From IMG/VR virus record IMGVR_UViG_2734482785_000014, positions 1 through 12,688 of that record: a stretch of DNA of 12,688 nucleotides, one strand, 5' to 3'. The position numbers and the translations under genes were made by a program. The notes under the pieces are model-generated. The model was not told the DNA's origin. It was given only the letters and a program-made list of their open reading frames with translations, and searched no databases. Positions 1,449-1,653 of this stretch are shown piece by piece. Each line of letters begins with the position of its first letter. Position 1 is the first letter of the stretch. This DNA comes from a virus. Lineage: Duplodnaviria; Heunggongvirae; Uroviricota; Caudoviricetes.

Positions 1449-1475
1449 TGATGCACCTCACTTAAATGGACTTTA

Positions 1476-1556
1476 TGGGCGCACACAATACAGCAAAAAA
1501 AATGAGATGTTAAGTATTGACATGTGCGCACACATGATTTTAATCTGTGCGCACAG
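1476..1556. promoter_or_regulatory. Operator cluster: three copies of the palindrome TGTGCGCACA
   Basis: O1 TGgGCGCACA (1476-1485, 9/10) lies just upstream of the leftward gene. O2 TGTGCGCACA (1523-1532) and O3 cTGTGCGCACAg (1545-1556) are perfect palindromes, 23 bp centre to centre. A further inverted repeat TTGAGT/ACTCAA sits at 1558-1575. Confidence 0.6.
1517..1545 (+). promoter_or_regulatory. Candidate sigma70 promoter for the rightward early operon, overlapped by O2 and O3
   Basis: -35 TTGACA (1517-1522), 16-nt spacer, -10 TTTAAT (1539-1544). O2 fills the spacer and O3 covers the predicted start region; the first gene begins about 100 nt downstream. Confidence 0.5.
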
Positions 1557-1653
1557 TTTGAGTTTTGTCACTCAAATTAAGCAACGCCCCGCAGTGCTCG
1601 CAACACATGCAGGGCGTCTAACCACCAACGATAGCAAGAGTATCGAGGTAGCT

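Follow-up and report, generated by a model that had tools for sequence, protein, structure and literature searches.

Genetic context of the regulatory region

The window, that is the whole stretch of 12,688 bp that was analysed, encodes a Bro-N protein (55-639), two small leftward open reading frames (ORFs), Icd-like/Ash ORFs and a DUF4222 protein in its first part, a replication side comprising a DUF927 primase, SSB and PerC, and a packaging side comprising an HK97-type capsid protein, S78 protease, portal, connector, HNH, TerS and TerL proteins; tail genes are absent from the window. On this gene content the window can be classed as a capsid-forming PICI-type phage satellite. The int and alpA genes lie outside the window. 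Over positions 900-1800 the window shares 99.4 % identity with E. coli 042, and the copy of the element in that strain (99 % identical) carries int and two HTH genes upstream, with alpA among its genes, and is inserted in a prophage terL, the helper-embedded PICI arrangement of Mageeney et al. (PMC10111431). Among Gram-negative PICIs AlpA acts as an activator and the global repressor has been described as 'unclear' (Fillol-Salom et al., PMC6092414), the difference from the Gram-positive PICIs being called 'a mystery' (PMC6092414).

Both small leftward ORFs lie on the minus strand. The first (1251-1448) encodes a 65-aa protein of the DUF3950/YlcI-YnfO family, which is a predicted ribbon-helix-helix (RHH) protein and the proposed reader of the operators described below. 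Downstream of it lies a basic 62-aa ORF (orf62; phrog_21027; 1020-1208), which is probably cotranscribed with the RHH gene, and a terminator-like hairpin with a T run, flagged by the intrinsic-terminator scan at 805-832 on the minus strand, is the likely end of the leftward transcript. On the plus strand, an eta-like open frame of 437 codons (955-2268), ending with an Icd/Kil-like C-terminus, runs antisense to both leftward ORFs and across the three operators and both promoters.

Palindromic sites and divergent promoters

The palindrome TGTGCGCACA occurs exactly at 1523-1532 (O1) and at 1546-1555, where it forms the core of a second site (O2) that widens to the 12-bp palindrome CTGTGCGCACAG (1545-1556), while a third site, TGGGCGCACA (O3; 1476-1485), matches it in 9/10 positions. 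These are the only three matches to TGTGCGCACA with one mismatch or fewer in the 12,688-bp window. Shuffled windows would be expected to hold 0.77 such matches, with three or more found in 5/200 shuffles, and two identical perfect 10-bp palindromes within 60 bp were found in 0/1000 dinucleotide shuffles. Sequence and shuffles thus confirm the three palindromes to which a first-pass annotation of this DNA had pointed, and the 9/10 copy does lie ahead of the leftward RHH-like gene, as had been claimed. The distance of 23 bp given there between the two perfect copies is correct from centre to centre, but not as a gap, with 13 bp between the copies.

The predicted rightward promoter (1517-1546, plus strand) comprises a -35 hexamer TTGACA (1517-1522), an 18-nt spacer and a -10 hexamer TAATCT (1541-1546). 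It was read by eye and is backed by an alignment of relatives anchored on TTGAC, in which the spacing of TTGAC, 18 nt and TAnnnT is kept in essentially all of the 61 relatives. The consensus promoter scan did not call it, since its -10 matches the consensus at only 3/6 positions. The predicted leftward promoter of the RHH gene (1485-1513, minus strand), found by the consensus scan, has a -35 hexamer TTAACA (1513-1508), a 17-nt spacer and a -10 hexamer TATTGT (1490-1485), and the two -35 hexamers stand back to back, 3 bp apart. Between the promoters lies an A8 tract (1494-1501), at approximately -52 to -59 of the rightward start, which is the position of an UP element and may serve the rightward promoter as such. 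O1 occupies the first ten bases of the rightward spacer, directly 3' of the -35 hexamer, and O2 starts on the last base of the -10 hexamer and spans the predicted start. O3 overlaps the last base of the leftward -10 hexamer and the predicted leftward start.

The 65-aa leftward protein

By its profile scores the 65-aa protein is a member of the DUF3950/YlcI-YnfO family, above the curated thresholds of both PF13132 (DUF3950; 28.3 bits, cut-off 25) and NCBIfam NF041551 (YlcI_YnfO_N; 59 bits, cut-off 30), and it also matches phrog_949 (E 1.4e-27). A role for the YlcI/YnfO family is not reported in the searchable literature, and the later PICI literature that was consulted does not name the gene as a regulator. 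The family also occurs in lambda and in E. coli K-12 prophages, and lambdoid phages encode DUF3950 homologues.

None of the Pfam RHH families matches the protein, a profile search of the PDB returned chance matches only and no sequence relative, and a Foldseek search of the PDB with the predicted structure found nothing. The AlphaFold2 monomer model, built with 57 homologues (pLDDT 76), consists of an extended segment (residues 14-18) and two helices (residues 19-33 and 41-63). This strand-helix-helix model resembles solved RHH domains and weakly suggests membership of the RHH class, at the level of the fold only. With hhalign, KSAKKNIRFPHELI was aligned on KMPQFNLRWPREVL of Arc, although not significantly (E 0.009, probability 4.6 %). 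In the same non-significant alignment K12, N14 and R16 stand in register with Q9, N11 and R13 of Arc, which we take to be the base-contacting residues of that repressor, and K12, N14 and R16 are the predicted DNA-contacting residues of the strand.

Conserved layout and concerted variation of the operators

Twelve genomic loci (eight genera) and 63 IMG/VR loci were compared, among which 61 distinct relatives, that is unique combinations of protein N-terminus and intergenic sequence, could be distinguished. These come from at least ten genera, and the set includes Serratia, Rahnella, Klebsiella, Pectobacterium, Enterobacter, Proteus, Xenorhabdus, Erwinia, E. coli and metagenomes. In the records Pmp7 and vB_KppS-Ant the annotations that coincide with the match are for the opposite strand, and they are uninformative. 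The 61 relatives share a common plan, consisting of O3, a minus-strand TAnnnT hexamer abutting it (by eye on the alignment), an A-rich tract, TTGAC followed at once by O1, a TAnnnT hexamer reaching over O2 at its left edge, then a small hairpin and a conserved leader, with an ATG after it. An A-rich run is found at the place of the A8 tract in nearly all of them, and the 23-bp register of O1 and O2 is kept in most; locus L024 carries a 23-bp duplication and locus L028 a 23-bp deletion, both between O1 and O2.

The generic site can be written as GTGT-N4/5-ACAC(C). The outer GTG...CAC is conserved in all operator classes, whereas the centres vary between loci but agree among the sites of one locus. 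O1 and the best downstream site differ at two or fewer of twelve positions in 83 % of loci, while this holds for 5.6 % of comparisons when O1 of one operator class is set against loci of another, and the third site has a median of 2/12 mismatches to O1. Asymmetric operators are found in either orientation, which favours sites for a protein over RNA or promoter elements. The same variation bears on the proposal that the palindromes act as nucleic-acid structures, for example as a hairpin terminator for transcripts arriving from upstream. While the terminator scan does flag CATGTGCGCACACATG together with ATTTTAAT (1521-1536) as terminator-like, many operator classes, such as GTGGGTGCACAC and GTGCCCCAACAC, are not self-complementary and yet keep their position and copy number, and this explanation is extremely improbable. 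A hairpin terminator at O1 was rejected on the grounds that relatives keep the sites without self-complementarity.

The operator centres also track the N-terminus of the protein. Operator distance between loci is correlated with the four residues just ahead of the invariant IRFP (Mantel r 0.49, p 0.0002; partial correlation unchanged at r 0.49), and not with the C-terminal 36 aa (r 0.06, p 0.21), with the reservation that the correlation is one between closely linked sequences, to which linkage may add because the N-terminal codons are only 30-70 bp from the sites. Proteins with AKKN at residues 11-14 accompany the operator TGTGCGCACA, those with AKKH, DKKA or SRVG accompany GTGGGTGCACAC, those with ATKK accompany GTGTGGCCGCAC and those with ATKG accompany GTGCCCCAACAC. 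Where these residues are xYKG, all ten loci (10/10) have TTTA-type centres, nine of them with GTGTTTAAACAC-type operators and the tenth (L002) with TGTTTACACAC. The variable residues 12 and 14 are those predicted to face the DNA, and in the model the invariant R16 would pair with the invariant outer GTG/CAC. The comparison therefore lends strong support to the earlier suggestion that the 65-aa RHH-like protein may read the palindromes at the divergent promoters and set the specificity of the element.

Natural exchange of the cassette in E. coli

Sequences flanking the switch (1002-1280 and 1580-1794) are present in 1692/5426 complete E. coli genomes, and only 32 of those 1692 match 80 % or more of the 900-1800 query, intergenic region included. 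The TGTGCGCACA cassette was found in 69 E. coli genomes. Nissle encodes a 101-aa YlcI-family protein with TGTAAG-type sites. In the O157-type elements the slot is taken by a 57-aa RHH protein that is Arc-like and unannotated, and two ATGGTAATTACC palindromes stand in the corresponding position; this Arc-like protein comes with its own TGGTAATTACC palindromes, and its cassette occurs in 677 E. coli genomes. Judged by these sequences, at least four cassettes are interchangeable in E. coli, between flanks that are otherwise homologous.

Binding of the sites by a host or helper-phage factor would be compatible with the conservation of the outer GTG...CAC across all classes, and the lambdoid DUF3950 homologues could in principle cross-react. 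However, the presence of four cassettes in a single species makes a host factor unlikely, the three sites of an element vary jointly, and the IMG/VR search revealed no paired sites in other enterobacterial phage contigs, making an external factor a very improbable reader. Pairs of TGTGCGCACA with a 13-nt gap were found in IMG/VR at nineteen loci, eighteen of which have a ylcI match, the remaining locus being cut, while in unrelated high-GC contigs the TGTGCGCACA palindrome occurs at other spacings. A search for further dyads had been suggested in the first-pass annotation as a means of finding helper-phage targets, but the 13-nt-gap pairs lie essentially only beside ylcI genes (18/19; other cut).

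Another regulator of the element, namely AlpA, the second HTH protein or the product of orf62, might instead read the palindromes, with the RHH-like gene as a bystander. The AlpA homologue of P4, Vis, regulates PLE. Of the regulators of Gram-negative PICIs, AlpA alone has been established by experiment (PMC6092414). Against this, no fewer than five AlpA/integrase types accompany one identical TGTGCGCACA cassette. Among them are those of Nissle (99 %) and of strain 139 (98-100 %), both of which elsewhere accompany other cassettes. AlpA therefore does not track the operators, and it was rejected as their reader. As for orf62, it is absent outside the E. coli-type loci and is nearly invariant, with approximately 80 % identity across four operator cassettes, so that the possibility raised earlier that this second leftward protein binds the palindromes was not supported. 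Overall, it is highly doubtful that any of these regulators is the reader.

A further possibility is that the RHH protein acts as antitoxin in a type II pair with orf62, the sites autoregulating that pair only. Such a pair should have a conserved toxin gene directly after the RHH gene, and none was found: across the family there is no conserved partner downstream, and at most loci the RHH gene stands alone. Furthermore, orf62 matches none of the toxin-family profiles, and two of the three sites lie on the rightward promoter and not on that of the RHH gene, which leaves the toxin-antitoxin explanation with very little credence. The lack of a conserved partner and the near-invariance of orf62 speak against a second reader as well as against toxin-antitoxin pairing, and orf62 was rejected in both roles.

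The sequence and its comparison with relatives thus establish that the sites exist and where they are placed, that they vary in concert and are coupled to the N-terminal strand, and that swaps occur. The reading of the core as a repressor with its operators is supported in that the architecture recurs, the sites co-evolve, their centres track the residues before IRFP, the cassette crosses AlpA types and the predicted fold fits an RHH protein.

The leader RNA and the isrK/C4 module

The dyad TTGAGT (1558-1563)-N6-ACTCAA (1570-1575), which had been taken for the site of a second factor, is present downstream of O2. As RNA it would form a 9-pair stem (1555-1563 with 1570-1578), at approximately +3 to +26 of the predicted transcript, and the predicted 5'-terminal stem-loop of the rightward transcript that holds it (1555-1578, plus strand) has a folding energy of -10.4 kcal/mol (z = -3.5). 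In locus L026, the protein of which is 98 % identical, the pairing is kept only through G-U pairs and the loop is different, and in 55 % of relatives the place of the dyad is occupied by a hairpin (z below -1), with unrelated sequences. These observations fit an RNA stem-loop, and the dyad is more likely to be such a 5' structure than a second operator; as a second protein site it was rejected on the L026 variant and the unrelated hairpin sequences. Of the interpretation given in the first-pass annotation, the core of the switch is strongly supported by the comparison, while the dyad as a second-factor site and orf62 as a candidate binder are not supported.

Two further hairpins are predicted in the leader on the plus strand. 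The first, ACGCCCCGCA...TGCAGGGCGT (1584-1617), is conserved with compensatory changes (such as CG/GC and GC/AU). The second (CGATA...TATCG, 1629-1645), which is likewise conserved with compensatory changes (such as UA/AU), is followed by the Shine-Dalgarno (SD) sequence GAGG (1645-1648) and the ATG at 1654, the start of the first Icd-like reading frame, the whole spanning 1629-1656. No Rfam family matches the leader hairpins. Further downstream on the same strand lie an isrK/seqA-like element (1837-1913; RF01394, 80 bits, gathering 50) with an intrinsic terminator, and a C4/CI-type antisense RNA (1935-2022; RF01695, 75.3 bits, gathering 45). The a' and b' loops of the latter are complementary to the upstream targets a1 (1862-1868) and b1 (1877-1885) within the isrK element and to the downstream targets a2 (2027-2033) and b2 (2058-2066), with b2 at the SD/ribosome-binding site of the ATG at 2077 of an Icd-like ORF. 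In this element the rightward promoter is thus predicted to drive a conserved structured leader and an isrK/C4 antisense-RNA immunity module. Among twenty scanned relatives of the switch, the module was found in only one and is lacking in the other nineteen, and the RHH switch therefore appears to be an independent unit.

The long open frame and the P4-like arrangement

In 58/61 relatives the longest frame that is open across the -35 also spans the whole of ylcI in antisense. The frame was then defined independently, from the downstream Icd-like ORF, and by this definition the intergenic region and leader are stop-free in the Icd-like frame at 49/61 loci, as compared to 3/122 for the other two frames (mean 5.5 stops). 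Some of the exceptions are ties between frames in the definition (L007, L008 and L041), and two others are the loci with the 23-bp duplication and deletion (L024 and L028). The antisense of ylcI is open almost automatically in the true frame, and the telling signal is the stop-free intergenic region and leader. In loci L079 and L080 the long ORF begins 15-58 nt after alpA.

The account of P4 in PMC10111431 (citing Forti 1999) describes a constitutive PLE promoter internal to eta, with the CI RNA and seqA also within eta. According to the same account, full-length Eta is translated only from a late promoter that lies upstream, in coupling with vis, the homologue of alpA, and its translation blocks CI-dependent termination (PMC10111431, citing Forti 1999). 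The order vis, eta (214 aa, with the same ...LAARLPV... ending), isrK and C4 was found in P4 itself, which in an Rfam scan matched the same two families (C4 and isrK). The start of the long ORF just past alpA and the P4-like order therefore suggest that the rightward promoter is the counterpart of PLE. As in P4, the promoter of the present element lies inside a long ORF with an Icd/Kil-like end, and isrK (seqA) and C4 (CI) follow downstream of the early promoter in the same order. Immunity in the present element does not appear to be of the P4 RNA-only type, with an RHH gene and three operators present here, whereas P4 lacks a repressor gene and operators at PLE. No YlcI homologue was found in P4, nor is there room for a divergent gene between its vis and PLE, and in comparison with P4 an extra structured leader and a first Icd-like unit precede the RNA module here. 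By analogy with P4, the RHH gene may be regarded as an addition nested antisense in an eta-like ORF.

A proposed satellite switch and its relation to known systems

The best-supported reading of the region, to which we assign a probability of roughly 70 %, is that of a satellite switch in which the 65-aa protein would act as an RHH repressor, O1 and O2 would shut the rightward promoter and O3 would provide autoregulation, the whole forming a swappable cassette. The DUF3950/YlcI-YnfO protein would be made from the leftward promoter in the integrated state, and its RHH dimers would bind the three GTGT-N4-ACAC-type sites. Occupation of O1 and O2 would exclude RNA polymerase from the strong rightward promoter, which heads the leader, the Icd-like genes and the replication and packaging operon, while the single and presumably weaker O3 on the repressor's own promoter would bring about negative autoregulation. 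The strand residues 12 and 14 would read the variable operator centre and R16 the outer GTG/CAC, and the head of the repressor and the operators would therefore form an exchangeable specificity (immunity) cassette, which would decide which satellites repress one another. If the parallel with P4 holds, transcription and translation of the eta-like frame, driven by AlpA from upstream, would cross the repressor gene in antisense, as well as the operators. Such passage could override the block by the RHH protein and also, in the present element, that by the C4 RNA; alternatively, the inducer may be a helper-encoded anti-repressor. Binding, the sign of regulation, cooperativity and the route of induction are the parts of this scheme that we infer. 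Several points were counted against it: the non-significant Arc alignment, the weak rightward -10 (3/6), the physical linkage of protein and sites, and the published AlpA-activation model, which needs no repressor (PMC6092414).

It is also conceivable, although unlikely, that the protein binds the sites in a different capacity, either as a Cro- or Arc-like late shut-off factor or by activating its own promoter from O1. In P22 the promoter of mnt is activated by Mnt itself, and O1 is centred approximately 50 bp upstream of the predicted leftward start, a geometry in which activation could be conceived. However, the gene is divergent from the operon that it would shut off, and its own -10 and start carry a site, as in a maintenance repressor that regulates itself negatively.

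As a maintenance repressor the protein would have one of its closest counterparts in Mnt (and Arc) of P22 immI, at the divergent Pmnt/Pant promoters, where a small RHH repressor is likewise divergent from the operon that it controls and symmetric operators lie on the core promoter. Arc and the 65-aa protein share an N-x-R-aromatic-P strand motif in register, and the O157-type relatives have an Arc-like protein in the slot. In contrast to P22, the protein belongs to DUF3950 and is not significantly homologous to either Arc or Mnt, an antirepressor gene is missing downstream, and there are three separate sites of 10-12 bp in place of one operator of 17-21 bp. The RNA module resembles P1 immI (c4, icd, ant) and Gifsy-1 IsrK in the complementarity of the C4 loops and in that b2 overlies the ribosome-binding site that serves an Icd-like ORF. 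It differs from P1 in that control of the promoter is proposed to be by the RHH protein and not by C1, no ant gene is found downstream, and most relatives of the switch lack the RNA module. With Stl (Rpr) of the SaPIs only the layout is common, a repressor divergent at the head of the satellite replication operon (PMC6092414); the fold is unrelated, and the published model for Gram-negative PICIs is one of AlpA activation.

For this kind of Gram-negative satellite no repressor has been identified so far, and the 65-aa protein is a candidate. Extending the proposal, we consider it possible, but only tentatively, that DUF3950/YlcI-YnfO proteins in general are the repressors of Gram-negative PICIs and cf-PICIs, present as exchangeable cassettes, flipped as AlpA-driven transcription and translation of the eta-like ORF pass over the repressor gene, its promoter and the operators, and backed in some elements by C4 as a second lock. 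If the switch operates as proposed, a family without a reported function, and one also present in lambda and the K-12 prophages, would gain a role, and the replication and packaging of satellites in approximately one-third of complete E. coli genomes would have an easily tested control point. The residue-to-operator correspondence would furthermore offer a candidate natural set of orthogonal small repressor/operator pairs. Co-resident satellites could then escape cross-repression by carrying different cassettes.

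Operator variants and gene content of the ylcI slot

Two IMG/VR sequences, L024 and L028, represent natural variants of the switch with an identical protein. A duplication of 23 bp in L024 gives rise to an additional copy of the predicted operator O2 (1545-1556), while L028 has undergone a deletion of 23 bp, by which the predicted operator O1 (1523-1532) is fused with O2 and the -10 element is lost. Two exact copies of TGTGCGCACA, at other spacings, also occur in ten unrelated and mostly high-GC metagenomic viral contigs (L085, L088, L090, L091, L092, L097, L102, L104, L108 and L109), with one of these pairs flanking TTGACA. 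No credible YlcI-like gene was found in these ten contigs by tblastn, which returned only chance-level matches (E 0.049 and 2.6).

The ylcI slot, occupied in the window by the leftward 65-aa DUF3950 gene (1251-1448, minus strand), is filled in Escherichia coli strain 139 and O157:H7 genomes by an unannotated gene coding for a 57-aa Arc-like RHH protein (L080, 3250-3470). This gene is accompanied by two ATGGTAATTACC palindromes, and it is carried by 677/5426 complete E. coli genomes. A DUF3950 protein (43% identical; TTRNIRFPNQ...) is encoded in the lambda-like phage O276 (L082, 200-394), where its gene adjoins the right cohesive end, as it does in lambda and the Stx phages. No similar operator set was seen 5' of the lambdoid DUF3950 gene.

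Terminators and integration site

The leftward transcript probably ends at an intrinsic-terminator-like hairpin at 805-832 on the minus strand. A second hairpin followed by a T run, read by eye, is located on the plus strand at the start of the window (10-40), just 5' of the Bro-N gene. In E. coli 042 (L001, 2140-4563), a 99%-identical copy of the element is inserted in a prophage's large terminase gene, an integration configuration which is that of a helper-embedded PICI.

The rightward transcript

Just 3' of O2, where the rightward transcript begins, a perfect DnaA-box consensus, TTATCCACA, is found in seven relatives which differ in operator class (L002, L003, L007, L035, L044, L048 and L054). 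The box sits inside the conserved block CCTTATCCACAGGTAAGGCACAG; L032 carries it in a changed flank, and the variant CTATCCACA occurs in L042. The consensus is not present in the window. The 5' leader of the rightward transcript incorporates two conserved hairpins (1584-1617 and 1629-1645), in which compensatory base changes occur among 45 sequences; the linker CUAACCAC is invariant. Comparison of this leader against Rfam gave no family match.

A 437-codon open frame (955-2268, plus strand) runs antisense to both leftward ORFs and spans both promoters and all of the operators. It resembles P4 eta and has an Icd/Kil-like C-terminus. In E. coli genomes, PGAP gives its upstream part the annotation 'Icd-like pseudogene'. 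Relatives keep the same long rightward frame, which is broken in both L024 and L028.

A complete antisense module of the P1 immI/P4 type (1837-2066) comprises isrK with a1/b1 and a terminator, the C4 RNA and then a2/b2, the last on the ribosome-binding site of the ATG at 2077. This isrK/C4 module is present in only one of twenty switch relatives. The isrK/C4-encoding stretch is covered by a Pfam Phage_ASH match and several PHROG 'transcriptional repressor' matches (window 1654-2268), and these protein families may be partial models of conserved RNA genes.
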